Positions 22,696 to 48,660 of a stretch of 64,000 nucleotides of DNA are shown one piece after another; position 1 is the first letter of the stretch; each line of letters begins with the position of its first letter. Location: the NCBI GenBank assembly GCA_902789415.1, contig CADAOD010000021.1, positions 5,030 through 69,029 on the forward strand, given 5' to 3'. Under the pieces are notes generated by a model. That model searched no databases, was not told the origin of the DNA, and saw nothing but the letters and a program-made list of their open reading frames with translations. Source of the stretch: an uncultured Prevotellaceae bacterium (lineage in GTDB: Bacteria; Bacteroidota; Bacteroidia; Bacteroidales; Bacteroidaceae). Position numbers and translations under genes: made by a program.

Positions 22696-22762
22696 TAAAT
22701 GTGTTAAATCAAGACAAAGTTTTGAATTTTTATGGCGGTCAAAAATGTATTTCCGATCTTTG
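22696..22762 (+). promoter_or_regulatory. Conserved 20-bp box plus -7 promoter element (copy 1)
   Basis: TAAATGTGTTAAATCAAGAC 22696-22715; GATCTTTG at 22755. Confidence 0.75.
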
Positions 22763-22790
22763 CCTTAGAATTAATTAAAAAGGTGATAAA

Positions 22791-23153
22791 ATGGATACAC
22801 TACAGCAAATAACGAAGGACACTCCTGTTGCAATGATGACCTATGGTCAGCTGCAGGATCATCTTACAGAGCATCTTACAGAGCATTTTATGAAGAATCT
22901 CTTCCCACCTCCTCTCCTTGAAATCCTGGCTAAGTACACGGAAATAGAAGAGAAGAACACGAAGCGATATGAGTATGGTGTAGGCGGAATAAAGAGATTG
23001 TTCCATTGCAGCTACCCTACGGCCCACAAACTAAAAGAAACGATTCTCAAACCTGCTATTCATCAGCAAGGACGTGTGGTTCTGGTCGATGTTGATCTCG
23101 CTCTTAAACTGTTCAGAGAAGCGAAAACGGTTAACAGCATAAAAGATTTATAG
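22791..23153 (+). CDS. DUF3853-like excisionase/HTH protein
   Basis: VAMMTYGQLQ..YEYGVGGIKRLFHCSYPTAHKLK..AIHQQGRVVLVDVDLALKLF. Confidence 0.75.
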   Translation: MDTLQQITKDTPVAMMTYGQLQDHLTEHLTEHFMKNLFPPPLLEILAKYTEIEEKNTKRYEYGVGGIKRLFHCSYPTAHKLKETILKPAIHQQGRVVLVDVDLALKLFREAKTVNSIKDL

Positions 23154-23155
23154 GT

Positions 23156-24676
23156 ATGTCAAATATACAGCTATATCAAGACATGACTACTCTTTCCAAT
23201 ATTTTTCTCCGCCGAATAAGAGTTCCGACCGAGAAGAGTCTTGGTAAATTGTCGTCAGCTTTGTTGGATATTTTTATCGAGCACTATAAGGACAAAAAAG
23301 ATGAACTACTAAGTCTTCGAGAAAAAAAGATGCCAGAGGTCAATAGATTTCTCACCTTAAAAGTTACATTTGGAGATTTACATTTTGCGGCCGATAAAAA
23401 TTTACCACGAGCAAAAGATTACATAGAATCATATATACTTAAAATTACCGAATGCCCATGCATTATATGGGATGACAAAAAGCAAAAATACAAGACTCTT
23501 CCATTATTGAAAGCTGCTGATGTCGATTTAGAAGGGTATTGTAAAATAACTTTTAATGATGTCCTTCTTGAGCACTTACTTCCCAAAAGCGAGTACGGTG
23601 CCTATGAGCCTGAAATAATAAAAGAATTACAGAAGAAAAATATGTACGCAGGCTATATATATCAAGAGGCATGTAGCTGGGAAAATCTTTATAATCACGG
23701 TAGGAACCCCTTCTTTATCTGGACTCTTTCTGACATTCGAAAGAAATTCAGTTTTGATGAGATAATTATTTGTGAAGATGGAACAAAAATTAAAGTCACG
23801 GAACCAAAAAAGAAGATGAGGATAGATAATCTACTTGGCAAAGTCCTTAATCCAGCGATAAAGAACATAAACGACTTATATGATCAAGGAAAAATTAGAT
23901 TTTGGATTGGTGTAAGTTGTAGTTACACTGGCGAGAAAAAAACAGGTCGTTCTCCTAAGAACTGTTTTCGGTTTGAAATTCATAAGGAGAAGAAAAACAA
24001 CAACATAGAATCCTTTCAGTCTGCTGTTCAACAAGAAATACAATTTGACGAATGTATCATTCTGGATAATGTATATATGATTCATAATATATTGAAAGGG
24101 AAAAAAGTTCCTCAGTCAAAAATCGATAAGATAATTGGTCAAATTAAAGAAAGGGAAACAGCGGACAATAATTACAGTGAGCAAGTCCTTTCGAAAATAA
24201 GAACGGTCGACAGCAAACACGGCGATAAAGGCGACAAAGAATGGTGGTATATTATAGGTGCTGTACTCTGGAGAGAGTTTCATCTTGGTGTTCCTGGGAA
24301 AAAAGAACTGCAATCCATGACAAGCGGTTGGCCGGACACCATCGACGAAAAGATTAAGTTGATGCAGAAAAGCTGGGAGATCTGTGATAAAGCCATACGA
24401 GAATACCCTCATCTTAATCTAACCCAAGAAAAGGTGATAAGTATTCTGGGCAATGAGTTCAGGGAGTACTGTATAAAATCAAATCCCCCCAAAACTCTGC
24501 GAAACTGGGATGATGCAACATCATTATTTTACACTTTACTGGGCAAACCTTATTTTAACGAAAAATTGAATCATGGAACAGGGAATAATCAAACAACAGA
24601 CACAGGCCAGTCTGACACAGCTTCGAACAGAGCTGATGACTATTTTAAACGCCGAGGAAGTCAGAGAATCTTATAA
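23156..24676 (+). CDS. Replication initiator (Rep_3-like winged-helix N-terminus) with C-terminal extension
   Basis: Rep-type spacing (KITFNDVLLEHLL..Y....IIKELQKKNMYAGYIYQ..WTLSDIRKKF..VLNPAIKNIN); iterons upstream; dnaB downstream. Confidence 0.65.
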   Translation: MSNIQLYQDMTTLSNIFLRRIRVPTEKSLGKLSSALLDIFIEHYKDKKDELLSLREKKMPEVNRFLTLKVTFGDLHFAADKNLPRAKDYIESYILKITECPCIIWDDKKQKYKTLPLLKAADVDLEGYCKITFNDVLLEHLLPKSEYGAYEPEIIKELQKKNMYAGYIYQEACSWENLYNHGRNPFFIWTLSDIRKKFSFDEIIICEDGTKIKVTEPKKKMRIDNLLGKVLNPAIKNINDLYDQGKIRFWIGVSCSYTGEKKTGRSPKNCFRFEIHKEKKNNNIESFQSAVQQEIQFDECIILDNVYMIHNILKGKKVPQSKIDKIIGQIKERETADNNYSEQVLSKIRTVDSKHGDKGDKEWWYIIGAVLWREFHLGVPGKKELQSMTSGWPDTIDEKIKLMQKSWEICDKAIREYPHLNLTQEKVISILGNEFREYCIKSNPPKTLRNWDDATSLFYTLLGKPYFNEKLNHGTGNNQTTDTGQSDTASNRADDYFKRRGSQRIL

Positions 24677-25361
24677 TGACGAAGATTCTTTAATTAGATC
24701 TTTCTCACCATTATGCCATTATGACATCATCAAAAATGAGCATAATGTATGGTTCGGCGCATATCCTACCTTAGTTACAATTAACAATGTTTACCCCGAG
24801 ACCGCTGAGCGTCTTGTAAACATAATGCTGGAGGACTTGGAAATATATATATGTGCTAACAAAAAATTTGATGAAACACAGTATATTCAATTATCACAAA
24901 TAATAGTATCCGAGTTTTACTTTCTAAAAATTTCGGAGTTAATTTTATTTTTTTGGCGCGTAAAAAGTGGACACTATGGTAAGTTCTACGGTCAGATTGA
25001 TCCGCTCAATCTTATCGAATGGTTGAGGAACTTCGTGTATGAGTATAGGTGGAATGCTATTAACGCAGATATTCAGAAAATAGAAGACGCCTATGAACAA
25101 TGGCATAGTCAGAATGTAGTTAAAGATCGCAACTTAGGTCATGAACTGCCTAACATCATGAAGGCAATAAGTGACAAAGCCACCGAAGAAAATGCAGAAG
25201 ACACAGAAAACCCAGATTTGGTGCAGGAATCTGCCTTAGCCTTAGTAAATAACACGGCAAACCTTAGTCCGGAAGATTTGATGGAAGTCTGTAGGGTATG
25301 GAAAGCCAGACATGGATGCAATCCATATGAATTTGTAACAAAGAATAAGAAGGAGGGTTAA
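24573..25361 (+). CDS. Phage-type replication-associated protein (DUF6633-like); possible helicase loader
   Basis: LKISELILFFWRVKSGHYGKFYGQIDPL recalled from Bacteroidota phage replication modules; lies between Rep and DnaB. Confidence 0.55.
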   Translation: MEQGIIKQQTQASLTQLRTELMTILNAEEVRESYNDEDSLIRSFSPLCHYDIIKNEHNVWFGAYPTLVTINNVYPETAERLVNIMLEDLEIYICANKKFDETQYIQLSQIIVSEFYFLKISELILFFWRVKSGHYGKFYGQIDPLNLIEWLRNFVYEYRWNAINADIQKIEDAYEQWHSQNVVKDRNLGHELPNIMKAISDKATEENAEDTENPDLVQESALALVNNTANLSPEDLMEVCRVWKARHGCNPYEFVTKNKKEG

Positions 25362-25363
25362 AT

Positions 25364-26848
25364 ATGCCACAGAACAACAATAATAGAAGTAGATATAACC
25401 AGCGGCAGGTTGAACAAAATAATCGTGATTATGTCATGCCACAAGCGACGGATATAGAGAAAGCCGTACTTGGTGCTCAAATGATAGACAAGGATGCCAA
25501 TGCCACTTTTGCCAAATTAACGAAAAATGAGCCGGTCTATTATGAGCCCCGCAATCAGATGATTCAAGATGCCATTGATACACTTGCGAGGGATGGACAC
25601 CCCATCGATGTATGGACGGTTGTCAATCAATTGAGTAGCATGGGTAATCTGGAAGAGGTTGGCGGTCCTGGCTATGTGACGGAACTATCAAGTAAGGTCG
25701 CATCTTCATCTACAATTAAATACCACACTTTAGTGCTCCTCGAAAAATACAAAAAACGCCGGTTAATAACGAACGGAATTACCTTGCAAAATAAAGGATA
25801 TGATAACACCATCTTGGCTGATGAATTATTGTGCGAAGCAGATTCCGACCTTCAAGCCATCCGTAATATACAACTCGGCGAAGAAATAAAGGACTTAAAG
25901 GTTAGCATCAAGGAGGCCGTAGAAGAGATACAAGCAGCAGCTTCAAACCCAGACGGGATAACAGGCATTGCATCATTTATAAGCCTGGATGCGAAAACAT
26001 CTGGCTTTCAAGATTCCGATTTGGTCATTGTCGCTGCCCGTCCTGCAATGGGTAAGACCTCCTTCGCTTTGACAACAATAAAGAAGATTGCGGTAATTCA
26101 GAAAATTCCAACGGCTTTCTTCTCGCTCGAAATGTCTGCTGTACAACTAACCAAGCGTCTTATTTCTGACGTTGCCTCTGTTCCTGGACAGACCATCCTT
26201 CACGGACAACTAAGCTGCGACGAATGGGACAGACTGGATAAAACTCTAACACCATTGATTGATGCACCTTTGTATATAGACGATACTCCCGGACTGACCA
26301 TCGGCGAGTTCCGCGCTAAGGCAAAAAGGCTCGTAAAGGAAAAAGGAGTAAAAATTATCTTTGTTGATTATCTTCAAATGATGCACTATGGTGCTAAGAA
26401 CTTCAGTACTCGACAGGAAGAGGTGAGCAACATATGTGAATCACTTAAAAACATCGCGAAAGAGCTGAATGTACCAATTATAGCCTTAGCTCAACTCAAC
26501 CGTGGCGTAGAGAACCGTGAGGGTCTGGATGGCAAACGCCCACGTCTTAGTGACTTGCGAGAATCAGGAAGTATAGAGCAAGCTGCCGACTTGGTAATGT
26601 TCATTCATCGCCCTGAATACTACCATATATACCAGGACGAGAACGGCAGAGACCTGCGCGGTATGGCACAGATTATCATCGCTAAGCATCGCAAGGGTGC
26701 CACCGGCGACGTACTCTTGTCATTCAAAGGTGAGTTCACGCGATTCGAGGATCCGGAAGAAAACACTCTTAACAGTCCCCATCAGTCAACACAGAAGCCA
26801 GCTGACAATGAGACCACCTATCAGGAAGGTGGACCGACTCCCTTCTAA
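25364..26848 (+). CDS. dnaB: Replicative DNA helicase
   Basis: AARPAMGKTSF, FSLEMS, IFVDYLQMM, LAQLNR, SDLRESGSIEQAAD, IIAKHRKG. Confidence 0.95.
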   Translation: MPQNNNNRSRYNQRQVEQNNRDYVMPQATDIEKAVLGAQMIDKDANATFAKLTKNEPVYYEPRNQMIQDAIDTLARDGHPIDVWTVVNQLSSMGNLEEVGGPGYVTELSSKVASSSTIKYHTLVLLEKYKKRRLITNGITLQNKGYDNTILADELLCEADSDLQAIRNIQLGEEIKDLKVSIKEAVEEIQAAASNPDGITGIASFISLDAKTSGFQDSDLVIVAARPAMGKTSFALTTIKKIAVIQKIPTAFFSLEMSAVQLTKRLISDVASVPGQTILHGQLSCDEWDRLDKTLTPLIDAPLYIDDTPGLTIGEFRAKAKRLVKEKGVKIIFVDYLQMMHYGAKNFSTRQEEVSNICESLKNIAKELNVPIIALAQLNRGVENREGLDGKRPRLSDLRESGSIEQAADLVMFIHRPEYYHIYQDENGRDLRGMAQIIIAKHRKGATGDVLLSFKGEFTRFEDPEENTLNSPHQSTQKPADNETTYQEGGPTPF

Positions 26849-26952
26849 GTAATAATGCTCTCATCTCACATCTGAGGGTGTAGGCATGAGAGCATCTTAT
26901 TATATATAATGTGTACATTATTACATCGTAAACAAGTAAATATATTAGAGTT

Positions 26953-27621
26953 ATGAAACGAAGTGTCAAAGTTATTACGACCTCCATCAAGGGAGGTGTG
27001 GGCAAGACCCAGATTTGTGCTACACAAGCATTGTACATGGTGGAGAAAGGCATACCTGTTAAGGTGATAGATGCCGACATCCAACAGTCGTTATCCCGTC
27101 ACCGCCAGCGTGACCTCGAAGTCCACCCGGACGAATGGATTCCCTATAGTGTCGATTTCCTGAACACTACAGACATTAACATGGTTAAGGCTGGCATGGA
27201 GATGATTTCTTCACTACCCTGCTGCTTTCTGATTGACTGCCCAGGTAATATCAGTGACCAGGCACTCAGCGTTATCTACAGGGCAGCAGACTATGCCGTT
27301 ATACCCTTTGAACTGAATGCTGATAGTGTTGACGCAACAGTTATGTTTGCAGAGGTGTTCAAAGCAAACTTCTCGGCTAAGATGTACTTTGTTCCCAACA
27401 AGGTTTCACCTATTTATGAGAAGCGTGGCGAGGTGCGCAAAGCCCGTGAAGATGCCGAAGCAGCTCTTGGCAAACTTGGCATAGTAACGCCAGACATCAA
27501 GATGACAACCCATCTGAACGGGTATTCAACTCTCGAGCTGTTAGACAGAGATAAGCGCAGACATATCCTTGACGCTTTTCATCCTATCGTCGAACCAATT
27601 TGGAAAGTTTATAACCGCTAA
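26953..27621 (+). CDS. parA: ParA-family ATPase
   Basis: Deviant Walker A KGGVGKT, IDADIQ, IDCPG. Confidence 0.88.
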   Translation: MKRSVKVITTSIKGGVGKTQICATQALYMVEKGIPVKVIDADIQQSLSRHRQRDLEVHPDEWIPYSVDFLNTTDINMVKAGMEMISSLPCCFLIDCPGNISDQALSVIYRAADYAVIPFELNADSVDATVMFAEVFKANFSAKMYFVPNKVSPIYEKRGEVRKAREDAEAALGKLGIVTPDIKMTTHLNGYSTLELLDRDKRRHILDAFHPIVEPIWKVYNR

Positions 27622-27632
27622 ATATTAAAGCT

Positions 27633-27959
27633 ATGGCAACAAAAAGAAGAATAGAGAACATCGCTAATGATGTCGATTTGACAGGTGCCTTTCTGAAGAA
27701 AACAGAGAAAGACCAAACCGTCAACAACACCAAGAATCCAGGAACCACCACCCCTGATGGGAGCTGGGTACGTGCAACCTTCATCTGTTCAAAAGAACTT
27801 GTGGACAAAATCAAGTTCATCGCAGAAGAGGAGAATTTCAGCATTCGAGAAGTCGTTGAGAAATCATTCAGCAATACTATTAGCCGTTACGAGACTAAGA
27901 AAGGAAAGAAGATAGTTATCAAGTCCAAGAAGAGAAAGGACATTGATAGCATCATCTGA
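27633..27959 (+). CDS. Small ParA partner (ribbon-helix-helix like)
   Basis: WVRATFICSKELVDKIKFIA strand-helix-helix pattern directly after parA. Confidence 0.65.
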   Translation: MATKRRIENIANDVDLTGAFLKKTEKDQTVNNTKNPGTTTPDGSWVRATFICSKELVDKIKFIAEEENFSIREVVEKSFSNTISRYETKKGKKIVIKSKKRKDIDSII

Positions 27960-27978
27960 ACGCCATGATTTATGCTCG

Positions 27979-28012
27979 ATGCCAGGGTGCTGTGAAGTAC
28001 TCTGGCATTTTT
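27979..28012 (+). terminator. Terminator of the rep/par operon
   Basis: ATGCCAGGGTGC/GTACTCTGGCAT stem plus T run. Confidence 0.75.
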
Positions 28013-28044
28013 CCAGTTCAAGGCATTTATTCAGAAAAAAATCG

Positions 28045-28111
28045 TAAATGTGTTAAATCAAGAGGAACTTTCTCTTGAATTTGTACACTTTGGGGAATAA
28101 ATGTATCTTTG
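28045..28111 (+). promoter_or_regulatory. Conserved box plus -7 promoter element (copy 2)
   Basis: TAAATGTGTTAAATCAAGA 28045-28063; TATCTTTG at 28104. Confidence 0.75.
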
Positions 28112-28148
28112 CTGCAAATAGAAAGAATATGTTAAATATTTAACCATA

Positions 28149-30170
28149 TTGAAAGTTATGTCAGAACCGAGAAATAAGCAAATCTTTCAAGATTTAGAAT
28201 ATGTCTTTGACAGGTATTACAGGGAGAATATCGCCCCTGTGGTCAAGGGTCAGATGGACTACCTCAAGAAGAAGCAGTCCGAGGAATACGTGCGTATGCT
28301 TGATAGCCGTCCTGTTGCTCCTGGCCAGTCTGGTATGATGCATGCCTCCATGGTTGCTCAGGAGGCCCATCTTGTGGGCGAGTGGAATAGCAAGACCTCC
28401 GACGACCTCCTGAAGATGGTTGACGGTAAGCTTGGTAAAAACAAGAATCTTCAGCATGACTTTGAGGTGTTTGTTGATGCCTGGCGCTTGACTGCCGTAA
28501 AGGAGATGGGGAAGCAGCGTTATGCTGAGCTTTCCGCAAAGTGTCCTTCCAAGGATCTTGCTAAAGAGTTCATTTCTAACCGTTTTATGCAGTTGGAACT
28601 TGAACAGCTTGCCAAAGCACAGGTTCCCAAGTCCTCCTTGGAGTATATTATGAAGAAAGGCTTTGGTGATTCATTCCCAGCCTTTCTTTCTGGCATGTCC
28701 ATGCCGGAAGGTCAACATGACCATATAATCAAGAATCTCGCAGAGAAGATGTATGATCCAAGTTCTGCAGAGAAGCTTGCTGCCTATACTACCACCTTCG
28801 TTGCCGATACCGCTACCACTGGTGGCTATGGTTCATGGACGAAAGCGGGTGTCTGGCTTGGTTTCGAGGTTCTCGCCCGTTCTGGTTTGGCATTATTAGA
28901 TGACAATACGACTTTCGATCAAGTCTTGGGAAAGGAGTTATATGGAGACGAGAACGCCTTTGCTTCTATTCGGTCTAATGGCAAGAAGGTAAAAGTCGCT
29001 CAGTCAGAGATCGTTCACGCTGTCAATGACTGCCTAAACAAGCCCATGACTATTCCTGAGTACCGGCCTCTTTACAGTCCTTCATGGCAAAAGGCGCGTT
29101 GTGACGAGCTAACAAATGCAGCTGGAGGTGACGCTTCTCTTCACATGGAAAATGTGCTTTCTGTATCAAGGAAGTATGGATTGAAACCCTCTGCCGTCTC
29201 TAACGTGCCAGGATGGATGTTTCAGAAGAGCCAGCAACAGTGTATTGAATTAAGCAGCTATTTTCTTTCTACTGCCTTAACCATGCAGCGTAGCAAGATG
29301 AAGATGCAGACTATTAACGGCCAGAAGTTTACTTTTGACGAGATTATTCAGAGAGCATATGACTATGCCCGTGCTGCCGATCAGATGCAGAAACAGGCAG
29401 AGAAACCCCAGGTGCAGACTGCATCAGTTGCCGTTTCTTCTCAGCAGGCTACTGCACAAAGTCAGGAACAACGTCAGTATCAGCCACAAGTCCAGCAACA
29501 GCAATATGCCGTACAGCAGCAGTATCAGCAGGGACAGCCTTTGCCCCAGCAGATGCAGCAATCTGCTGTTAACTACCAGACAGAAGGTATGAATGGCTGG
29601 CATAGTATGATGAGCCAGTTAGGTCTATCAAATATGGGAGATATCGGTCATAACCTTGGTTATGTCATTGCCATGTTGCCTGATATGCTTGTTGGTATGC
29701 TGACGGGTAAGAGTAGTAGTCTTCGTCTGAATGATAATCTTCTGCCTTTCGGTGCCATCTTTGCTGGAATGTTTGTAAAGAATCCGCTTTTGAAGATGCT
29801 TCTGATTGGTCTTGGTGGTGCCAATATCCTTAACAAGGCAGGTCACAATCTCTTGGAGAACTCTGGAGTCCAGACTTCCCAGCAGCGTCCAAAGCAGTAC
29901 GTCCAGCATAAAGACGAATTACTTTCCGAGCGCATTGAGCAGCCTGCCATGAAGGGCAATGCCCTTTTAGCCACTATAGACCATAAGCCCTGTGTTATCT
30001 ATATCGACGAGCAGAGTGCCGATGCCTACTATCAGGGTAAGCTCCCTCTTAACGTTCTCTGTAATGCTGTTCTGAGGAAGTATGATGAACAACAGTCTGC
30101 TGTCAGAGATAATTATGACCGTAGTGTTTCACAAGGTCAGGAACGGCAACAGACTCTCGGAATTAAATAG
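28149..30170 (+). CDS. Conjugative-element-associated hypothetical protein with a Gln-rich linker
   Basis: GEWNSKT, GMLTGK..L..NLLPFGAIFAGMFVKNPLLKMLLIGLGGANILNKAG recalled from Prevotella conjugative elements; function unknown. Confidence 0.7.
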   Translation: MKVMSEPRNKQIFQDLEYVFDRYYRENIAPVVKGQMDYLKKKQSEEYVRMLDSRPVAPGQSGMMHASMVAQEAHLVGEWNSKTSDDLLKMVDGKLGKNKNLQHDFEVFVDAWRLTAVKEMGKQRYAELSAKCPSKDLAKEFISNRFMQLELEQLAKAQVPKSSLEYIMKKGFGDSFPAFLSGMSMPEGQHDHIIKNLAEKMYDPSSAEKLAAYTTTFVADTATTGGYGSWTKAGVWLGFEVLARSGLALLDDNTTFDQVLGKELYGDENAFASIRSNGKKVKVAQSEIVHAVNDCLNKPMTIPEYRPLYSPSWQKARCDELTNAAGGDASLHMENVLSVSRKYGLKPSAVSNVPGWMFQKSQQQCIELSSYFLSTALTMQRSKMKMQTINGQKFTFDEIIQRAYDYARAADQMQKQAEKPQVQTASVAVSSQQATAQSQEQRQYQPQVQQQQYAVQQQYQQGQPLPQQMQQSAVNYQTEGMNGWHSMMSQLGLSNMGDIGHNLGYVIAMLPDMLVGMLTGKSSSLRLNDNLLPFGAIFAGMFVKNPLLKMLLIGLGGANILNKAGHNLLENSGVQTSQQRPKQYVQHKDELLSERIEQPAMKGNALLATIDHKPCVIYIDEQSADAYYQGKLPLNVLCNAVLRKYDEQQSAVRDNYDRSVSQGQERQQTLGIK

Positions 30171-30218: not shown

Positions 30219-30299
30219 ATTGATGCATAAAAATATGGAATAAGCTTTTTCTCATTCTGCTTTTCTCTTGATTAAGACAATTTAAGACGATGAAATTTC

Positions 30300-30366
30300 T
30301 AAATGTGTTAAATCAAGACAAAGTTTTGAATATTTTATCGCGTGTGTTATATAAAAGATAACTTTG
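30300..30366 (+). promoter_or_regulatory. Conserved box plus -7 promoter element (copy 3)
   Basis: TAAATGTGTTAAATCAAGAC 30300-30319; TAACTTTG at 30359. Confidence 0.75.
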
Positions 30367-30404: not shown

Positions 30405-31256
30405 ATGTCAGTAGGTTTATTTGCAAAATTAGCGAAAGAGGCAGCTCCGATATTAGAAAACCAATCGGCGCTAAAGGCTGCTGGTAAGGTTGCTAAATAT
30501 GGTGGGATTACCCTTGGAGTAGGTGGTTTCGGAATCTATCATATGATTACCGGCAAGGGTCTTGTTGACGTTGCTGGTAATACCATCCTTGGTGAAGAGT
30601 ATGAGAAGGAAGGCCTTGCAGGTGTTGTAAAGAAGAAAGCCACTGGTACCGCTGGAGCCGACAAAGGTCTTGTAGAAGGTGTTACGGATGCTGCAATGGG
30701 TGCAGGCACCTATCAGAAGATTGGCGATACTGCCGATCAGGTAGTTGACTCAGTAGGTAACGGTGTTCGAGCCGCCCGTGATGCAGCAGGAAATCTTATT
30801 TCCGGTGCTGCCGGAGCTGTTCAGGGTATGGCTGGCGGTGGTCAGCAGCAGCCGACGTATGCCGATCCCAATACAGGCTATGTTCCCCAGCAGACAATGA
30901 TGAATGGCGGTGCAAGTCAGTTTACAGGCATGTTCAACAGCGTTCCTCAGATGATAGGTAATATGACAGGCAGCAATGTCACATTGACAAATCTTGCAGG
31001 TCTTATTGCCTCTGCTTACATGATGATGGGGCCTTTTGGTTGGATGGGTAAGATTGCCAGTCTGTTGACAGGTAATATGGCATTGAAGTCCATGCGCCAG
31101 CAGCCTGCATATGCGATGCCCCAGCAGGGCTATTACCCCCAGATGCAGCAGGGCTATTACCCCCAGATGCAGCAGCCCTATTACCCTGCTGCTCAACCAT
31201 CTCCGCAGCAGCAACAGGAAGACAATAATCCCGTTTATCGTTCAAGACATCTATAA
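30405..31256 (+). CDS. Gly/Ala-rich putative membrane protein with QQGYYPQM repeats
   Basis: ORF track; hydrophobic Gly-rich segments; 24-bp tandem repeat at 31122-31186. Confidence 0.7.
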   Translation: MSVGLFAKLAKEAAPILENQSALKAAGKVAKYGGITLGVGGFGIYHMITGKGLVDVAGNTILGEEYEKEGLAGVVKKKATGTAGADKGLVEGVTDAAMGAGTYQKIGDTADQVVDSVGNGVRAARDAAGNLISGAAGAVQGMAGGGQQQPTYADPNTGYVPQQTMMNGGASQFTGMFNSVPQMIGNMTGSNVTLTNLAGLIASAYMMMGPFGWMGKIASLLTGNMALKSMRQQPAYAMPQQGYYPQMQQGYYPQMQQPYYPAAQPSPQQQQEDNNPVYRSRHL

Positions 31257-31266
31257 TTTGAATACT

Positions 31267-32046
31267 ATGAACTCTATAAGATTATATAGTTTCTTCATTC
31301 TTTTCTCTGTGTCATTACTTTCGCACGGACAGATGACCTATAACCACGATCCTGTGGTGATGAACCAGTTCATGAAGGCTGAGATCGGTTCCGGTACCCT
31401 TGGTGCAGGTTATTTTTATGCAGAACAGGTTTATTATGGTCAACTGCACAAAGGATATCGTAATATGGCCAATAATCCAGCCAATAATAAGCTTGCCAGC
31501 AGAACGTTGACCTATGCCGAAGTCTTAAAGCAGGAAAATTATGCTCTTCAGATAAAGGACTCCTTAGAGAAACGTGCTGAGATAGAACTCCTGAACATGG
31601 CAGATCGTCAGCTTGATGTAGAGTGGTTGGTAGAGAAAGAAAAGATTGAACGTCAGCAAGCCATATTCAAAAAGAGCATCCAGGATATTGTCTATTACGG
31701 TGGAACATCCTCTGATAAGACAAACTGGACAACCATTTATAATATGGTCCAGGAAAGTCTTGATGCTGCCCACGATGCTTATATGCCCAATAGCCAGCGT
31801 AAGGCTGTTTATCTGCTCCTTTATAAGGACTTGTGCACTTACAATACCACTCTTAATGAATGTAAGGCAAAGTGGTGGGCAGCCCGTTCCGTCCGCAATA
31901 ACGAAGGTGTTTCGCAGAAATTTACCAAGAATCGCTCCATGATATCTGATTGTTATGGACGTTGGAAGCTGGCATGGGCAGGTAAGAAGGGTAACGCCGG
32001 TGGCGTTCCTGGTAGTGGTGCCATCGGTATTGATGCTGGTAAATGA
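31267..32046 (+). CDS. Secreted conjugation-associated protein, DUF5045-like (start moved to ATG 31267)
   Basis: Signal peptide; TYNHD..KRAEIELLNMADRQLDVEW..DAYMPNSQRK. Confidence 0.65.
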   Translation: MNSIRLYSFFILFSVSLLSHGQMTYNHDPVVMNQFMKAEIGSGTLGAGYFYAEQVYYGQLHKGYRNMANNPANNKLASRTLTYAEVLKQENYALQIKDSLEKRAEIELLNMADRQLDVEWLVEKEKIERQQAIFKKSIQDIVYYGGTSSDKTNWTTIYNMVQESLDAAHDAYMPNSQRKAVYLLLYKDLCTYNTTLNECKAKWWAARSVRNNEGVSQKFTKNRSMISDCYGRWKLAWAGKKGNAGGVPGSGAIGIDAGK

Positions 32047-32062
32047 TACAAAAGAATATAAT

Positions 32063-32755: not shown

Positions 32756-32761
32756 AATATT

Positions 32762-33847: not shown

Positions 33848-33849
33848 TT

Positions 33850-35076: not shown

Positions 35077-35098
35077 GTTTATAATAAGTGTATAAATT

Positions 35099-35797: not shown

Positions 35798-35805
35798 TCA
35801 TTATT

Positions 35806-36258: not shown

Positions 36259-36262
36259 TATT

Positions 36263-37279: not shown

Positions 37280-37282
37280 ACC

Positions 37283-37603: not shown

Positions 37604-37605
37604 GT

Positions 37606-37911: not shown

Positions 37912-37928
37912 CAAGCAATATTATAGCG

Positions 37929-39267: not shown

Positions 39268-39801
39268 ATGAAAAAGAGTATTTTTCTGAATTTGATGACA
39301 GTAGCCATGATGGCTGCTATGTGTGTAACCTTTACAGCCTGTGGCGGTGATGACGGTGACAGCACGCCAGGTAAGCCAGACGGTCCGTCAGGACAAACAG
39401 GCAGCACAGAGTATGTAACCCCGTGTCTGGACTTTGGCAGCTCTATAGCACATGTGAAGGAGTATATGTCCGGCACCATCTGGCAGCTGAACGAGAACAG
39501 TAACGACGCTGTTCTGCTCTACATGAACAACCAGGCGACGACAGTGGTAAACTACATGTTCATCAACTCTAAGCTTCACATGACAACTGTTACCTATAAC
39601 GGCGGCGGTGAGAGCAAGGCAAATGCCTTCAAAGCGGAGATAGAGAAATTGTATGGCGTGACGATGACGCGCGAAAATGACCCCGACAACCCTGCCCAGT
39701 TCTCATATCATTGTACGGTAACCGTCAACCAGAAGAGCGTTGTTATCATGATGACCTGCTACGCACAAGGAATCAACATCCTTTATAGTTTGCCAGATTG
39801 A
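39268..39801 (+). CDS. Hypothetical lipoprotein
   Basis: Lipobox TFTAC-GGDD; promoter TATCTTTG near 39219. Confidence 0.75.
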   Translation: MKKSIFLNLMTVAMMAAMCVTFTACGGDDGDSTPGKPDGPSGQTGSTEYVTPCLDFGSSIAHVKEYMSGTIWQLNENSNDAVLLYMNNQATTVVNYMFINSKLHMTTVTYNGGGESKANAFKAEIEKLYGVTMTRENDPDNPAQFSYHCTVTVNQKSVVIMMTCYAQGINILYSLPD

Positions 39802-41297: not shown

Positions 41298-41455
41298 ACT
41301 CTGTGCTTTTTGGACAGGACGTCGGCGAATCTGCAAGGGGTGCTGCTCGATGGGAGGAACCCTTTCCAATTCTTTCCAATTCTTGCAAAATTGGAAAGAA
41401 TTATATATATTGGGCGCAGTCCGCTATTACCGATTCCAGAGAGAATAAAGACTTG

Positions 41456-41546
41456 TTAACAATTATCAGCCGCTGGCTGGGAATTATAAAAATATGTAAA
41501 AGAACTGTTGAAAAGTTGTTTTACATTAACTTTTTCGTAACTTTGC
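41456..41546 (+). promoter_or_regulatory. 91-bp promoter cassette, copy 1
   Basis: 85/91 identical to 42681-42771; ends in a TAnnTTTG box. Confidence 0.8.
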
Positions 41547-41604
41547 ACTCAAAGAACGTGGACTTGATGCTCCACAACCATTGTATATTCAAATATTTGA
41601 TAAA

Positions 41605-42360: not shown

Positions 42361-42680
42361 CTTTGAAATATAACAGGTTATCTTGCCTATTTGGGTAAGA
42401 TTATCTTACCCATGTACCCTGTATCAGATCAGCCTACTAAAATATAAGGTGCTCCTTGTATTTTACATCAATTTTGATGTATTTGAAGGTGTAAAGATAT
42501 TTTATTTCGCCCGATTTTAGGGGGATATAACTACCTCACCTGCAGTCTGTTTCGCGTTCTACGGGCTTTATATGAGGTCATTTTCTCCGTCGACATCGGT
42601 AAAATGCCCGTTTCGGCAAAATACTTGACAATATTCAGTTGGCGTATCTTTTACCGATGCAGGAAAGGAATTTGTACCTA

Positions 42681-42771
42681 TTAACAGTTATCAGCCACTG
42701 GCTGGGAATTATAAAAATATGTAAAAGAACTGTTGAAAAGATGTTTTGCATTATCTTTTTCGTACCTTTGC
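42681..42771 (+). promoter_or_regulatory. 91-bp promoter cassette, copy 2
   Basis: Direct repeat of 41456-41546; ends in TACCTTTG. Confidence 0.8.
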
Positions 42772-42793
42772 TGTCAGATAATAACTCTCAGCA

Positions 42794-45562
42794 ATGAAAT
42801 CAGACAAACAAATCGCCAAAGATGCTGCTGAATTTGCAGACCGTTGGCAGGGAGAAGGGTACGAAAAAGGTCAAAGCCAGATGTTTTGGAGTGACCTTCT
42901 GACGAAAGTTTATGGGATAGAAGATCTTACGTCTTTCGTCCGTTTCGAGGAACAGGTGAAGAGTGATATATCAACCACCAACTTCATCGATGTTCGTATT
43001 CCATCAACGAAGGTGTTCATAGAGCAGAAGTCCATCAACAAAGACCTACGTGCTCCCATCAGGCAAAGTGACGGTAATTTCCTGACACCATTTCAGCAGG
43101 TGAAGAGGTATGCCAACGATGTAAGCTATTCACAGCGTCCACGTTGGATAATTACCTGCAATTTCAAAGAGTTCCTGGTCTATGACATGGAACAGCCGAA
43201 CAGCGAGCCAGAAAGTATTTTACTGAAAGACCTCGGTACCGATTATTATCGTCTGAAGTTCCTCGTCGATGAAAAGAGCGAGCATATCAGCAAGGAGATG
43301 GAGGTTTCAATGGCAGCGGGAGAAATTGTAGGACGTATCTACGATGCGCTGCTGAAGCAATATGATGACAATTCACCAGAAGCTCTGCGATGGCTGAATA
43401 TCCTTTGTGTCCGCATTGTGTTCTGTCTGTATGCTGAGGATGCTGGCATCTTCAGCCGAGACCAATTCCATAACTATCTGGCGAAATTTGACGCAGAAGG
43501 AATGCGGCAAGCACTACTGCAGTTATTCCAAACGCTGAACACAAAGGAAGGTAACAGGAGCAAATTCTTACGAGACGACCTGAAAGCATTCCCATATACC
43601 AATGGAGGATTGTTTGCTGCTGAAATCGAGATACCTCAGTTTACGGATGAGCTGCGTAAGGTTTTATTGCATAATGCCAGTCTCGATTTCGATTGGAGCA
43701 AGATATCCCCCACCATCTTTGGAGCCGTTTTTGAATCGACATTGAACCCGGAAACGAGACGTGCAGGAGGTATGCACTACACCAGTATTGAGAATATTCA
43801 TAAAGTCATTGATGCCCTATTCCTGAATACACTCAGGAAGGAGTTCGAGACCATTCTTGAAGAGAAAGTAGAGAAGACCAGGAACAGGCTGCTTGATGCC
43901 TTTCAAGACAAGCTGGCCAGTCTGGTTTTCTTCGATCCCGCTTGTGGCTCCGGCAACTTCCTGACGGAAACATACCTAAGTCTGCGCCGTCTGGAGAATG
44001 ACGTCATTCGTGCCAGATATCACGGACAGGCATTTATTGGTTTTGAAGATAATTCGCCCATCAAGGTAAGTATAAGCCAGTTCTACGGCATAGAGATAAA
44101 CGACTTTGCCGTGACAGTGGCCACCACTGCCCTTTGGATTAGTGAGGCCCAGATGTTGGCTGAGACAGAGAAGATTATTGACTTTAATGATGACTTCCTT
44201 CCACTAAAGACCTACACGAATATTACGGAAGGTAATGCCCTACGCATAGAATGGAAGGATGTAGTTCCTGTAGAGCGACTGTCATATATCATCGGCAATC
44301 CTCCATTTGTTGGCCATCAATGGCGCAATGAGACGCAGCAGGAGGACATGAATCTTGTATTCGCAGATGCAAAGAAACATGGGAAACTTGACTACGTAGC
44401 TTGTTGGTATAAAAAAGCAGCTGATTTAATGCAGAACACACACATCAAATGTGCTTTCGTTTCAACAAACAGTATAACACAAGGTGAAAGTGTGGCGGCA
44501 TTGTGGGAATTGCTTTTTGGGCAGTTTTATGTGGAAATTCAGTTCGCTTATCGAACATTCAACTGGACAAGTGAGGCTTCTCTTAAAGCAGCCGTGCATT
44601 GTGTCATTATAGGTTTTACATGTTACCACGATAAGGAGCAGAAGATTCTTTTTGATAACGACAAGCTATCTTATGTTGAGCATATCAATGGATATCTCTT
44701 AGCGGCTCCCGACATCTTCATTCAGTCAAGAGGGAAACCCCTCAATGCTGATTTACCCATTATGAGCAAAGGAAGTCAGCCAACAGATGGAGGAAATCTG
44801 ATTCTGTCGGTAGAGGAGCGTGAGGAACTAATAAAAGCCTTTCCTGATGCTGAAGTTTTCGTCAAACGTTACATGGGAAGCGATGAGTTTATAAATAACA
44901 AGTATAGATATTGCTTATGGCTAAAGGGGGTCGCACCATCTGATTATAGGAAGATTTCCCCAGTTATGGAACGTTTAAAGAAGGTTGCTGAGACAAGATC
45001 CAAGAGTCCAACGGCATCGGTGAGACGCGATGCAGATATTCCCATGCTATTCACTCAGATTCGACAACCCGAAAGTAATTACCTTGCTGTTCCTGAAGTT
45101 TCTTCACAACGTCGTAGGTATATTCCTATAGGATATATGTCACCAGATGTCATATCGAGTAGTAAACTTATTCTGATTCCCGATGCTTCCATTTACATGT
45201 TTGGCGTGATGACGTCTAATGTTCACATGGCATGGATGCGTGTTGTTTGTGGGCGTTTGAAAAGCGATTATAGCTATTCTCCAGCCGTTTACAACAACTT
45301 CCCATGGCCATCACCCACGGATGAACAGAAAGTAAAGATTGAGCAGACTGCGCAAGCTATACTCGATGCCCGTGCGCTTTATCCGGAAAGCAGTTTGGCA
45401 GATCTCTATGACGAAGTGGCTATGCCACCAGAGCTGCGAAAAGCGCACCAGGCTAACGACCGTGCCGTCATGGAGGCCTATGGATGGAAAGCTGACAGGA
45501 ATTTCACTGAAAGCGTTTGTGTGGCTGAACTATTCAAGCTATACCAGAATTTGGCAAAATGA
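42794..45562 (+). CDS. MmeI-like (Type IIL/IIG) fused restriction endonuclease - N6-adenine methyltransferase
   Basis: N-terminal nuclease (FIDV..VFIEQKS), GMHYT, FDPACGSGNFL, IGNPPF, C-terminal TRD (H.AW.R.VCGRLKSDY.YS...YNNFPWP). Confidence 0.9.
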   Translation: MKSDKQIAKDAAEFADRWQGEGYEKGQSQMFWSDLLTKVYGIEDLTSFVRFEEQVKSDISTTNFIDVRIPSTKVFIEQKSINKDLRAPIRQSDGNFLTPFQQVKRYANDVSYSQRPRWIITCNFKEFLVYDMEQPNSEPESILLKDLGTDYYRLKFLVDEKSEHISKEMEVSMAAGEIVGRIYDALLKQYDDNSPEALRWLNILCVRIVFCLYAEDAGIFSRDQFHNYLAKFDAEGMRQALLQLFQTLNTKEGNRSKFLRDDLKAFPYTNGGLFAAEIEIPQFTDELRKVLLHNASLDFDWSKISPTIFGAVFESTLNPETRRAGGMHYTSIENIHKVIDALFLNTLRKEFETILEEKVEKTRNRLLDAFQDKLASLVFFDPACGSGNFLTETYLSLRRLENDVIRARYHGQAFIGFEDNSPIKVSISQFYGIEINDFAVTVATTALWISEAQMLAETEKIIDFNDDFLPLKTYTNITEGNALRIEWKDVVPVERLSYIIGNPPFVGHQWRNETQQEDMNLVFADAKKHGKLDYVACWYKKAADLMQNTHIKCAFVSTNSITQGESVAALWELLFGQFYVEIQFAYRTFNWTSEASLKAAVHCVIIGFTCYHDKEQKILFDNDKLSYVEHINGYLLAAPDIFIQSRGKPLNADLPIMSKGSQPTDGGNLILSVEEREELIKAFPDAEVFVKRYMGSDEFINNKYRYCLWLKGVAPSDYRKISPVMERLKKVAETRSKSPTASVRRDADIPMLFTQIRQPESNYLAVPEVSSQRRRYIPIGYMSPDVISSSKLILIPDASIYMFGVMTSNVHMAWMRVVCGRLKSDYSYSPAVYNNFPWPSPTDEQKVKIEQTAQAILDARALYPESSLADLYDEVAMPPELRKAHQANDRAVMEAYGWKADRNFTESVCVAELFKLYQNLAK

Positions 45563-45669
45563 ATATCTATACTTTGTATAAGAGTTGCCCCACATCACGT
45601 GAGACAACTCTTTTTTTATTTTATAATTTTTATATAGAATATCTGCATCGGTAAATAATAGTGGCATGT

Positions 45670-47631
45670 TCATCTTTTTTTTGTCGTTTTCTGGCTCTGT
45701 GACGAAGATCTGCGAGGTAAGAACATGTTGAACATATTCTGCCACCATCTATACTTGTCATCGCTATCCTTGGGCAGTTCATTATTTTCCCCACCACCGA
45801 CACCCGTACTCTGCATAGCAGAGAGTATCATGCCAAGATATCCCTTCACTACATTATCCCTGACTTCTGAATAGATATTATTTTTGTATGGCGTATACCC
45901 CTCTATCTCGTTAATAAGATGCCGCGACATCAATTCCAGGGTAGGCAGATGTAAGATATCCATTTTTTCTTCATAACCTCGAGCGACTATACCCTTTGCT
46001 ATCCCAATTATATTTTCTTCGAGTATTTCTTTGCGCGAGAAAGGATCCTTGAACATATTCTCAAATATATTTCTTGCATTCTCAATATCATCAAGACACT
46101 TTTCGTGTATTGTCGGCTCGGTCTGTACTGGGGTATGATGATGAGCAGGACGCGTAGAAACCGGCTTCTGAGTGACCATAGGAGTCGGTTTGATAATCTG
46201 CTTCTTTTTCTTTCCCATAGCGACATAATTAGCATATGCTACAGCGGCATCAGCAGTCTTTTCGGCTTCTTTTCTATCACCATTATCATTTTCGTAGATA
46301 GCTTTATCCAACAAATATAAGGCTTTTTCTCTTGCTTCTTCAACCGTCATTTCCAGATCATCAAGGTTAGGTGAATATATACCATTGGTTGAGACATAAT
46401 TTCTATCGCATTCCTCTATAATATACTCTGCTAATTCATAATCCCGAATAGTACTACGATCAAATGGCTCTTCATCGAGATATGCCATTTCGTCATCTGG
46501 TATCTTTTCTGATTGGATGACATCTACTGTATGGGCGGCTTCATTTGAAGATATGACAGTTCCTTTCTCCTGTCCTTTTCTCCATTCTGGATTAAGAAGC
46601 TGCTCCAATGGCATAATATCACTGCCCTTGAATACAATTTTCTTATTATTATCAACTATAGTGTAGCCTTTGACTTCACCGTCCCACTTCGAGAACACTA
46701 CAGACAGTCCGAATTTCGCTTTCAATTCCTCCAGGAACTGCTTAAACTGTGCCTTTCTGATACCCTTGATGTCTTCACCCAAGGCGTTCTGGCCATCGAA
46801 AGCAGCCCCCTTTACACCCTTCTTACTGTCAGTAGCAGTATGCTTTTTCCCCTTCTTTGTCTTCACGACTTCCGGGTCATCCACCAGGTAGTCCATCGAC
46901 CTGCGCCGGTGGTCAAGTATGATACCTTTAAGCTGCTTGATACGATCCTTCTCGTTATCTTTATTCTTGCCTGTTGCTTCTATCTGGTTATTTATTTCTT
47001 CATCGGTAAAGTTAGTAAGAACCTCTTGAGCACGCCTTACGTGTACCACGCCGAGTTCACTATTGTAGTATGACTGACGATATCCTACAGCGCGTAGTAG
47101 ATTAAGAAACTGTTCCCTCGACTCGAACTTATATTTCAGTAGATTCTCCAGCTTATCTTTTTTGTTATACCCTAACAATTTATCGAGTATGCGCCGGGCT
47201 TTTATGCCCTCGCAGTAATTGTCTATCCATTCTCCTGTAGTCTTGTTAACTGTCACCGTGGCACTATGTATATGGTAATGACCAGAGTCAAGATGCCCCC
47301 AGAACACCATTGGTTGTCCTGCATATCCCATATCTTCAAGCACCTTGATCCCCAGTTCCAACAATCGTTGTTTATCCTCTTCTGTCGGCTTTCCGGGCAG
47401 GGAAAACATCGTATGTTTCTGTGGGTGCACTACCTGAGGATTACGGTCGGCTATCTTCTTTAAATACCTACTTAGCACTACCGGAGAATGTATATTATAC
47501 TTCTCCAGCTCACCGAAATTCTTCATTCCGAGGAATATCGCTTTACCCTCTGCTACCTTCTTCTCGTTGTAGAAACAGGCCGCGAAAGTAGTAGCATCAT
47601 TCCCCAATATTTTCACGTTTGCTCTATCCAT
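45670..47631 (-). CDS. MOBP-type relaxase
   Basis: Motif I ACFYNEKKV; motif III VFWGHLDSGHYHIHS. Confidence 0.88.
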   Translation of the reverse strand: MDRANVKILGNDATTFAACFYNEKKVAEGKAIFLGMKNFGELEKYNIHSPVVLSRYLKKIADRNPQVVHPQKHTMFSLPGKPTEEDKQRLLELGIKVLEDMGYAGQPMVFWGHLDSGHYHIHSATVTVNKTTGEWIDNYCEGIKARRILDKLLGYNKKDKLENLLKYKFESREQFLNLLRAVGYRQSYYNSELGVVHVRRAQEVLTNFTDEEINNQIEATGKNKDNEKDRIKQLKGIILDHRRRSMDYLVDDPEVVKTKKGKKHTATDSKKGVKGAAFDGQNALGEDIKGIRKAQFKQFLEELKAKFGLSVVFSKWDGEVKGYTIVDNNKKIVFKGSDIMPLEQLLNPEWRKGQEKGTVISSNEAAHTVDVIQSEKIPDDEMAYLDEEPFDRSTIRDYELAEYIIEECDRNYVSTNGIYSPNLDDLEMTVEEAREKALYLLDKAIYENDNGDRKEAEKTADAAVAYANYVAMGKKKKQIIKPTPMVTQKPVSTRPAHHHTPVQTEPTIHEKCLDDIENARNIFENMFKDPFSRKEILEENIIGIAKGIVARGYEEKMDILHLPTLELMSRHLINEIEGYTPYKNNIYSEVRDNVVKGYLGMILSAMQSTGVGGGENNELPKDSDDKYRWWQNMFNMFLPRRSSSQSQKTTKKR

Positions 47632-47633
47632 TG

Positions 47634-48332
47634 TTACTCCTCTTCTTTATTATATCTACTTTCAAGTTCATCTATTAACAGATAAACAGGCAGCTCGCCA
47701 TAACCATCAACATTCCCACTGATATAGTCCTGTAAAGCTCGTAAAAGTTGTCCTACTTTCACTTTAAAATTTCCTACAGGAGGGAATACCAGGCATCTGG
47801 TAAGCAGCTCATCTTCCTTTAAAAGAATATCCGAAATAGCGTTTTTATCGTTCACTACAGTTTCTTTATATTCCCTTATAAGAGTTCGTATAGATGCCAT
47901 ATTTTCAAGGGTGCCATCCCTGAACTGTAGCAATTCTCGACGTTGTTCTGATACCTCCGTTCCGTTTTCCTCAGCCTTCAACATCAGCAGATTTATCTTC
48001 TTCGCTATCTGGTTGACGTTGTTTCCGAGGCGGTTAATCTCTTCTATTATTCGCCTGAAGTCTGCTTCGAAGGTCGCGAGAACCATACGGTTATCAGCGA
48101 TACATTTTACCAGAGAGTCAGCATCTTTAAGACTCACTCCGACGCCATCATCCATGTGGTTTACTGCGTACCTTATCATATTACTAAGGGAGTATTTGGG
48201 CTTGCCGAAACCGTTCATAGATCTCGCAACCCATTTCCCCTTATCCCTTTCACGAAGGTGTATCTGGTTATCATTTCTCTTCTTTCCAGATACCCTTACC
48301 GGCTTCATTTTTTTGTCTTCCATCATCATCAA
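47634..48332 (-). CDS. MobC-like relaxosome accessory protein
   Basis: EINRLGNNVNQIAKKIN motif; directly upstream of the relaxase. Confidence 0.85.
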   Translation of the reverse strand: MMMMEDKKMKPVRVSGKKRNDNQIHLRERDKGKWVARSMNGFGKPKYSLSNMIRYAVNHMDDGVGVSLKDADSLVKCIADNRMVLATFEADFRRIIEEINRLGNNVNQIAKKINLLMLKAEENGTEVSEQRRELLQFRDGTLENMASIRTLIREYKETVVNDKNAISDILLKEDELLTRCLVFPPVGNFKVKVGQLLRALQDYISGNVDGYGELPVYLLIDELESRYNKEEE

Positions 48333-48365
48333 TATTAAAAAAATGAGTAATACATTATGTTTGAA

Positions 48366-48396
48366 GTGCCCGACTAAGAGGGCACGTTACCCCTGC
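48366..48396 (+). other. Candidate oriT/nic
   Basis: Inverted repeat GTGCCC/GGGCAC followed by TTACCCCTG^C, resembling the MOBP YATCCTG^Y nic; upstream of mobC. Confidence 0.5.
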
Positions 48397-48511
48397 AAGG
48401 GCGGGATGGGAAGGTGTACATAATGGCATCGTTAGAGGCCGTTGTGTACCACCTGCCACTTCCCGCCTACTTCTGGAAATTCTGGCAACGCCGGATTTCC
48501 TTGAAGTACTG

Positions 48512-48660
48512 CAAAGATACGTAGTAGCTTTGTGGTTGCCGAAATTCGGCAAACATTCGTCTTGATTTAACACATTTAAGACGGCGAAAATTCTAAATGA
48601 GTTAAATCAAGACAAAGTATGTGTTTTTTTAGGGTATCTGAAAGATTTTTTCGACCTTCG
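48512..48660. promoter_or_regulatory. Divergent promoters with an inverted pair of the conserved box (copies 4 and 5)
   Basis: Reverse box 48559-48578 with TATCTTTG (minus) at 48519-48512; forward box 48594-48613 with GACCTTCG at 48653. Confidence 0.75.

Follow-up and report, generated by a model that had tools for sequence, protein, structure and literature searches.

In several well-described mobile elements, genes needed for transfer are switched on together through a short site repeated upstream of their promoters. In IncC plasmids and in the SXT/R391 integrative and conjugative elements (ICEs), the box of one master activator – AcaCD or SetCD, respectively – stands before many operons, and the SGI1 and MGI islands carry the box of their helper; mobilisable elements of the NBU type likewise respond to helper regulators. 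KorB of the IncP-1 plasmids is a ParB-type repressor that recognises a 13-bp palindrome at replication, partition and transfer promoters, with some copies at a fixed position beside the promoter. The marboxes of MarA, SoxS and Rob are asymmetric sites of ~20 bp that are constrained in orientation and distance and centred in the −60s, degenerate in sequence and chromosomal. To our knowledge, the regulation of gene transfer in the Bacteroidota is understood in detail essentially for CTnDOT alone, helper–satellite cross-talk in this phylum has been shown only for NBU/CTn pairs, and we know of no described transfer-regulation system for Prevotella, the dominant rumen genus. In CTnDOT, RteC binds 50–70 nt upstream of the promoter of the excision operon and activates it, and Xis2c/Xis2d act upstream of the tra and mob promoters (PMC3809561). 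Here we analyse a stretch of 64,000 nucleotides (64 kb; ‘the window’) of contig CADAOD010000021.1 from an uncultured Prevotellaceae bacterium (assembly GCA_902789415.1), which originates from a bovine rumen metagenome and contains an integrated element of ~33.5 kb. As judged by sequence comparison, a conserved box of 19–22 bp at a fixed distance from the −7 element forms a genuine promoter module that is under selection, stands before most backbone operons of this element and in effect defines a regulon.

Five copies of one box at a fixed distance from the −7 element

Searching the window with the pattern TAAATGWGTTAAATCAAGA, and using shuffled sequence as the control, we found five copies of TAAATG(T/A)GTTAAATCAAGA, with 0.01 expected from the shuffles at ≤2 mismatches. 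The plus-strand copies start at 22696, 28045, 30300 and 48594, and the minus-strand copy occupies 48560–48578; four of the five are identical, and the copy at 48594 carries A at position 7. No sixth copy was detected at ≤3 mismatches across the 64 kb, ~30 kb of flanking chromosome included. In an ungapped alignment of the five regions the octamer TAnCTT(T/C)G begins exactly 59 bp past the box start in every case (5/5). The motif CATTTA/AATTTA-N15-TAAATG turns out to form the inner end of a second, inverted box of full length, the arm being perfect at 48560–48578. Conservation also extends beyond 20 bp, with T at −3, C at −2 and an A-rich stretch at −8 to −4 upstream of the box, and C(A/T)(A/T)(A/T)GTTT downstream of it. 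A preliminary description of the window had placed all five boxes, and its coordinates are exact to the base; the −7 boxes that it put at +59 are all recovered by the alignment, and the dyad that it reported at 28045, 30300 and 48594 is seen at all three and is absent at 22696. The boxes, arms and −7 boxes are as follows:

22693–22714, plus strand: box 1 (TCG followed by TAAATGTGTTAAATCAAGA), no clear distal arm; kept at the orthologous place in relatives L243–L251
22755–22762, plus strand: −7 box of promoter 1, GATCTTTG; the DUF3853 ATG lies 28 nt downstream
28011–28063, plus strand: box 2 (28045–28063) with a weak distal arm (28011–28029); 15-nt spacer, arm ~11/19 by hand count
28104–28111, plus strand: −7 box of promoter 2, TATCTTTG
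30266–30318, plus strand: box 3 (30300–30318) with a degenerate inverted arm (30266–30284, TCTTGATTAAGACAATTTA); 15-nt spacer, arm 14/19 by hand count
30359–30366, plus strand: −7 box of promoter 3, TAACTTTG
48556–48616: full dyad of box 4 (minus strand, 48560–48578) and box 5 (plus strand, 48594–48612), 15-nt spacer, between the divergent mob operon and open reading frame (ORF) 48728
48512–48519, minus strand (starting at 48519): −7 box of the leftward mob promoter, TATCTTTG
48653–48660, plus strand: −7 box of the rightward promoter, GACCTTCG, the weakest of the five

The box recurs in rumen Prevotellaceae with rigid geometry

The preliminary description had left the occurrence of the box beyond this element to a motif scan. 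We scanned one genome per species (185,579 species, 596 Gb) with the 19-mer alone, a query that is unbiased for spacing, and obtained at least 118 loci, of which ~33 among the matches listed are rumen Prevotellaceae or Bacteroidales metagenome-assembled genomes (MAGs). Among these listed matches, NNNNTT(T/C)G lies exactly at +59 in 42 of the 44 distinct Prevotellaceae/Bacteroidales sites, and at +58 or +60 in none, so that the box recurs in many Prevotellaceae elements at the distance seen in the window. The same motif stands at +59 in 0 of the 81 remaining listed sites (~0.6 expected by chance), which are nearly all chance matches in other taxa. Most non-Bacteroidales matches fall in one conserved Pelagibacteraceae coding stretch (L003, L006, L007 and ~35 further loci listed), and the 19-mer alone thus lacks specificity in 596 Gb. 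The box loci share with the window merely scattered segments of 70–85% identity, and since so little DNA is held in common the sites can be treated as independent.

A second scan, of metagenomes, used TAAAnnnGTTAAATCAAGA-N44-TTTG, a pattern with the +59 constraint built in, and returned at least 120 loci; the same pattern had no match in 2.9 million viral contigs (IMG/VR). The dyad had no match in PLSDB plasmids or GenBank phages, nor the core motif in the searchable literature. Pooling both scans yields at least 193 distinct promoters from rumen Prevotellaceae MAGs and contigs. Some contigs carry many boxes: at least eight blocks of 8 kb on CAMUYR010000005 and four on CAMAHD010000001 contain them.

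The pooled sites share one layout: the box, ~16 bp, TT(TG) as the −33 element, ~20 bp, and TAnCTTTG as the −7 element. Across the 193 sites listed, box positions 7–18 (GTTAAATCAAGA) are almost invariant and positions 7–11, 17 and 18 fully so, positions 9–11 having been set to TAA by the site filter; T at −3, C at −2 and TAAA at 0–3 are strongly conserved, and positions 4–6 are variable. The 40 nt separating the box from the −7 box carry almost no information. Conservation of both ends but not of the intervening 40 nt argues for selection on geometry rather than recent duplication. With a relaxed box pattern, 167 sites have the 40-nt gap and 0–2 have any other gap within 35–45 nt. The second arm is equally rigid in its placement: a distal arm matching at ≥12/19 positions is present in 95 of the 193 sites at exactly the 15-nt spacer, and in 0–1 sites at any other spacer. 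Readings of the dyad as an RNA hairpin or as a single-stranded DNA promoter were rejected, as half of the sites are without the second arm and the −33/−7 elements are fixed downstream.

The promoters themselves are of the ordinary Bacteroidota type. The consensus for σ-ABfr is TTTG at −33 and TAnnTTTG at −7 (PMC7366714), and in the box loci TAnnTTTG stands at −7 and TTTG near −33, ~19–21 bp further upstream. In the 193 sites the −33 element has T at +35 in 166 and at +36 in 168, and the −7 element (+59 to +66) reads T (160 sites), A (139), n, C (133), T, T, T, G, with C as the next base. Of the 44 unbiased sites listed, 13 have a TTTG that begins at +35 or +36. The first ATG mostly lies 18–46 nt, most commonly ~30 nt, beyond the −7 box, which matches the lengths of 5′ untranslated regions in B. 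thetaiotaomicron (mode 23 nt, median 32 nt; PMC7366714).

An asymmetric arm in one orientation, at an invariant distance and with a fixed spacer to a second arm, is characteristic of a factor touching RNA polymerase from upstream. We consider it rather likely that the box is the operator of a dedicated trans-acting regulator, and favour an activator.

Operons headed by the box in the window

The element and its transcription units are laid out as follows:

20955–54521: integrated element, ~33.5 kb, inserted at the 3′ end of a tRNA-Glu gene, as delimited by direct repeats, tRNAs, lower GC content and Pfam integrase domains
22043–22636, plus strand: ORF 22043, not box-driven, 197 aa (probably 176 aa, from 22106), directly upstream of box 1
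22791–27959, plus strand: operon 1, encoding a DUF3853 helix-turn-helix (HTH) protein (Xis-like), a 506-aa ORF, DUF6633, DnaB, ParA and a 108-aa ribbon-helix-helix (RHH)-like protein (Pfam, PHROGs, relatives)
28149–30170, plus strand: gene 2, a 673-aa protein of no known family that is conserved and box-driven in relatives too
30405–38297, plus strand: operon 3, 11 ORFs, mostly without known family
45670–48332, minus strand: mob operon, encoding a MobC/NikA-like accessory protein (47634–48332) and a MobA/VirD2-type relaxase (45670–47631) (Pfam)
48728–50077, plus strand: operon 5, encoding a 353-aa protein of an unannotated family with an HTH-like N-terminus (ORF 48728), then a 90-aa ORF
52914–54263, minus strand: tyrosine integrase at the right end (Pfam)

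The box-headed units total ~19 of the 33.5 kb. In operon 1 the 506-aa ORF occupies the place of a Rep3-family initiator in relatives, and operon 3 includes DUF5045, a YspA/SLOG protein, an HNH nuclease and a 338-aa protein that matches Bacteroides MobC (coupling protein) in part. The genes of the element without a box are ORF 22043, ORF 38679, a lipoprotein gene, an MmeI-type restriction–modification gene, the gene for the single-stranded DNA-binding protein (SSB) and the integrase gene.

Direct repeats of the tRNA 3′ end bound the element at 20955–20975 and 54501–54521. There are two identical tRNA-Glu genes, and the element sits at the 3′ end of the second, the tRNA-end repeat at 54501–54521 measuring 18–21 nt. 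Repeats of the form TTACACGCA-N5-TTACACGCA near both ends are probably the arm sites of the integrase; the tRNA-Glu genes, the tRNA end and the arm repeats together take up 20737–20972, 21006–21038, 21205–21226, 54355–54387 and 54501–54521. To the left of ORF 22043 and of the rep/DnaB/ParA operon, an iteron-like array (21633–21804) of 6–7 tandem copies of a 21–23-bp unit (TTTTCACTACTCGGCGCGGCA) is probably the origin of replication, and this makes the island look like an integrative plasmid.

A small unannotated domain is common to ORF 37929 (37929–38297) and the middle of the SLOG protein (33850–35076, aa 241–282), and is also found downstream of xis/int in NBU-like elements (L044, L088), in ORFs of 114–116 aa; it represents a widespread, box-driven protein with no assigned function. 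A 106-bp direct repeat (89% identical; 41451–41556 and 42676–42781) brackets the segment upstream of the MmeI-type restriction–modification gene (42794–45562), the second copy ending just before that gene. Together with further internal repeats (40385–40435/40853–40903 and 40816–40849/41197–41230), this gives the segment the look of a rearranged cargo region.

The box marks operon heads in otherwise dissimilar elements

To survey targets elsewhere, the first genes downstream of the boxes were clustered and representatives were searched against Pfam. Two HTH_17 families of excisionase-like proteins stand behind the box in small NBU-like elements; genes for an integrase, a DUF5906 primase-helicase and a toprim protein usually come next. 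Other box-headed genes with a role in mobility encode DUF3853, NikA/MobC-like accessory proteins, DUF4099, topoisomerase III and an M23 peptidase with glucosaminidase, and head Mob_Pre and MobA relaxase operons; further ones encode OmpA-like proteins, an N6 methylase, SSB and lipoproteins. Also box-driven is a tra operon that encodes DUF4134 (TraE-like) and a TraG P-loop ATPase, and the ORF 48728 family provides the first gene past the box in 11 of 17 loci. In two conjugative elements (L078 and L082; CAMAHD010000001, CAMUYR010000005) a divergent DnaN-like gene adjoins the box-driven tra operon upstream; from its sequence, read by eye rather than confirmed by a family search, we take its product to be a sliding clamp.

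Every box locus whose genes we examined is in a mobile-element context, and the operons that it heads belong to conjugative, mobilisable and plasmid-like elements with otherwise few genes in common. In the small NBU-like and the L253-type elements all sampled operons appear from gene order to be box-headed. The regulon-like promoter module of the preliminary description thus stands and extends to other elements, small mobilisable ones among them; its choice of regulator, to which we return below, does not. Recurrence of the box in small mobilisable elements fits a regulator supplied by a helper.

This range of targets bears on the idea that the boxes are sites of DNA metabolism – relaxosome (origin of transfer, oriT), centromere or replication sites to which MobC-like, RHH/ParA or Rep proteins would bind – with their proximity to promoters being incidental. 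The best dyad does separate the mob operon from its divergent neighbour, which is where an oriT would be expected, and the element has ParA, a small RHH-like protein and a replication module. Nevertheless, the box precedes xis-int, tra, topoisomerase, peptidase and cargo genes in elements without those proteins, it keeps an exact distance from the −7 box in about 190 sites listed, and the element has a separate iteron array at 21633–21804. Moreover, between the window and relative L239 the RHH-like protein is 96% and ParA 92% identical, although the boxes differ at 6/19 positions. We regard this explanation as very improbable.

Box-driven operons are nearly silent in rumen metatranscriptomes

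Expression was read from assembled rumen metatranscriptome contigs. In these, box-driven operons are nearly silent, and non-box genes of the same element are covered: ORF 22043 is covered at a depth of 14–16 and the adjoining box operon is not. The lipoprotein gene at 39268–39801, which has no box promoter, reaches a depth of 830–1230 as compared to 0–10 for the rest of the element; its homologues adjoin boxes in 14 loci and are almost never box-driven.

The near silence of the boxed operons would be accommodated by a global repressor operator that keeps the backbone of the integrated element switched off, so that de-repression, or entry into a repressor-free cell, fires the operons together; KorB/KorA of the IncP plasmids and the negative-feedback networks of the IncW plasmids are precedents. 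The −33/−7 elements are also fairly near consensus, and elements that are wholly box-driven are easier to understand with negative autoregulation than with a self-encoded activator. A repressor is, however, harder to reconcile with the position of the box, which leaves the core promoter free, its end lying ~16 bp before the −33 element, and with its base-exact spacing and strict orientation in about 190 sites listed, which are typical of factors that touch RNA polymerase. Nor did we find a protein family common to all box-bearing elements, and elements that are otherwise identical differ in their first gene (HTH_17 or DUF3853) and yet have the same box. On balance, we think repression unlikely.

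Box variants and tandem promoters suggest several specificity classes

Relatives of the element, found via homologues of ORF 22043, retain boxes at three orthologous promoters. The two promoters sampled in L239–242 have boxes reading AAAACGTGTTAAATTACGA; the −7 box has stayed at +59, and a degenerate arm is still found at the 15-nt spacer. The L239 boxes differ from those of the window at 6/19 positions. In L253/254/257 the two arms of the mob dyad each read GTTAATTCAAGA, and L255/L256 have the same mob dyad as the window. Additional box classes are GTTAAAATACGA, GTTAAATCAGGA and GTTAAATCGGGA. At four loci (L055, L170, L137 and L233) two or three full promoter cassettes stand 90–110 bp apart before unrelated genes, and each cassette of such an array bears a different box class (GTTAAAATACGA, GTTAATTCAAGA, GTTAAATCAAGA); the L055 array occupies 2494–2765.

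Concerted change within elements, together with arrays of several classes, points to several cognate sequence-specific regulators rather than to one conserved host protein. This is a difficulty for the view that the box is a site of a host architectural protein (IHF/HU-like; compare the host factor that CTnDOT requires in Bacteroides) or an UP-like element, which would bend DNA or recruit polymerase and form a strong constitutive cassette exchanged by mobile elements. Such a view would explain why one box serves otherwise unrelated elements within one host family, and by eye the asymmetric arm contains AATCAA, similar to WATCAA of the E. coli IHF consensus. Yet the remainder of that consensus does not fit, the 12-nt near-invariant core is far more specific than usual architectural sites, and the box-driven genes are poorly expressed in situ. 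The ~30 kb of chromosome in the window have no copy of the box, and the box loci examined are all in mobile-element contexts. We consider a host architectural site improbable.

Several box specificity classes imply several regulators. We tentatively suggest a wider scheme, one we would put at somewhat below even chances. There may be at least four box specificity classes, each with its own trans-acting regulator, likely carried on conjugative elements, which would couple the excision and transfer of unrelated ICEs, NBU-like elements and integrative plasmids; through a tandem array of different box classes, one gene could respond to several helpers at the same time.

Candidates for the binding protein

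The preliminary description had proposed the ORF at 22106 (here ORF 22043) or ORF 48728 as the regulator, and neither proposal gained support. Sequence searches against Pfam, NCBIfam, PHROGs and PDB returned nothing for ORF 22043, ORF 48728 or ORF 38679. ORF 22043 belongs to a family of 31 unannotated proteins that are always encoded just left of box 1; its AlphaFold model is poor (predicted local distance difference test, pLDDT, 56) and gave no significant match in Foldseek, a LAGLIDADG-like fold being non-significant (E about 0.1, template modelling score 0.28) and not used. The family gives no clear sign of tracking box type: homologues at 63–76% identity keep the standard box, and the variant box occurs in the 61% clade only. 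ORF 48728 has a good model (pLDDT 81.5) and an HTH-like N-terminus, as read from model and sequence; the model has no fold match in the PDB, and the putative recognition helix of the family does not follow box type.

Proteins of operon 1 were also considered. DUF3853 is 92% identical in L239, with the HTH region unchanged although the box changed, and in L251 it is replaced by an HTH_17 protein with the boxes unchanged; the RHH-like partner of ParA is 96% identical between the window and L239 despite the 6/19 box differences. Since both proteins stay nearly constant while the boxes differ, we reject both as determinants of specificity and consider neither likely to bind the box. MobC-like proteins gave no signal of co-variation with box type.

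Leaving aside the cargo lipoprotein, SSB and similar genes, neighbourhood statistics over 1318 ORFs from about 160 loci revealed no frequent family that consistently stays out of box operons, and Pfam searches of representatives of the neighbouring families gave no transcription-factor family. Among the window ORFs scanned there is no FlhC/FlhD-family match (Pfam, NCBIfam), no ParB domain and no AraC-family protein. RteC had no Pfam match in the 30 window ORFs or in the neighbouring-family representatives scanned, most helper sequence lying outside this sample. No candidate regulator gene is common to the elements in which all sampled operons are boxed, for which a regulator acting in trans is the simplest reading.

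A model for coordinated activation

In the model that we favour, the box would be a cis-acting operator welded at a fixed distance onto ordinary Bacteroidota σ-A promoters of backbone operons. We infer that a sequence-specific protein binds the asymmetric arm TC(G/T)-TAAAnnn-GTTAAATCAAGA, often cooperatively with a second, inverted arm 15 nt away, and that the bound protein, at about −70 to −52 and centred near −61, would contact RNA polymerase and activate transcription, so that the excision, replication/partition, mobilisation and transfer operons fire together. The regulator would probably be provided in trans by a conjugative helper element, a host source being less likely, and unrelated elements in one cell would thereby respond to the same signal.

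Several points weigh against this model. The metagenome sites and the count of 167 sites with the 40-nt gap are biased by the +59 query, the genome-scan subset alone being unbiased, and the placement at −70 to −52 follows from how the consensus defines the −7 box. The core promoters are reasonably good and would also suit a repressor. Searches by family, fold, co-variation and neighbourhood have not identified the box-binding protein, and the concerted box variants could fit a factor encoded by the element itself rather than by a helper.

For work on how transfer is regulated in rumen Prevotella, the box is a good starting point, given how widely it occurs, how exact its geometry is, and that it comes in specificity classes and promoter arrays. 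The box is a cheap computational marker of mobile-element backbones and their promoters in rumen metagenomes; the 53-bp dyad offers a direct handle on the master regulator, through DNA pull-down or DNA affinity purification sequencing (DAP-seq); the scheme provides a testable model of helper–satellite cross-talk in the Bacteroidota; and the rigid geometry would suit an inducible promoter part for Prevotella and Bacteroides genetics.

Comparison with known systems

The kind of system described here is already known from AcaCD/SetCD, RteC and Xis2c/2d, and by the features that define those families it belongs to none of them. As in the AcaCD/SetCD networks, with which the preliminary description had drawn its comparison, the same box is found at transfer, excision and mobilisation operons and in mobilisable satellites, with variants by family. 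Those networks, however, belong to Gammaproteobacteria and use σ-70 promoters, FlhDC-family activators and a box that overlaps the −35 element, whereas here the box ends at +18, the −33 TT lies at +35/36 with no overlap, and no FlhC/FlhD-like protein was detected. The comparison holds for the shared-box regulon and its satellites, not for the protein or the −35 overlap, and is best regarded as an analogy.

The repetition of one operator at replication, partition and transfer promoters of a single element recalls KorB/KorA. Unlike the KorB case, no ParB was found, the arm is asymmetric and oriented, and the 108-aa RHH-like partner of ParA does not track the box. Class I marbox promoters offer another likeness, in having an asymmetric ~20-bp site of constrained placement centred in the −60s; unlike there, no member of the AraC family turned up among the ORFs scanned.

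The closest functional parallel is, by analogy, RteC of CTnDOT. No RteC-family protein is present among the 30 window ORFs scanned, a difference from CTnDOT; phylum and promoter type are the same, and both systems have upstream sites for xis, tra and mob. The target set is also as in CTnDOT – a Xis-like HTH protein, topoisomerase III (Exc-like), and the tra and mob operons – and, with the −7 box placed by consensus, the box would span about −70 to −52, as compared to −50 to −70 for RteC. What sets the two apart is the wiring: CTnDOT uses a cascade, with different proteins and sites at each promoter, whereas here one box, in a few variants, stands at one exact distance at all operon heads.

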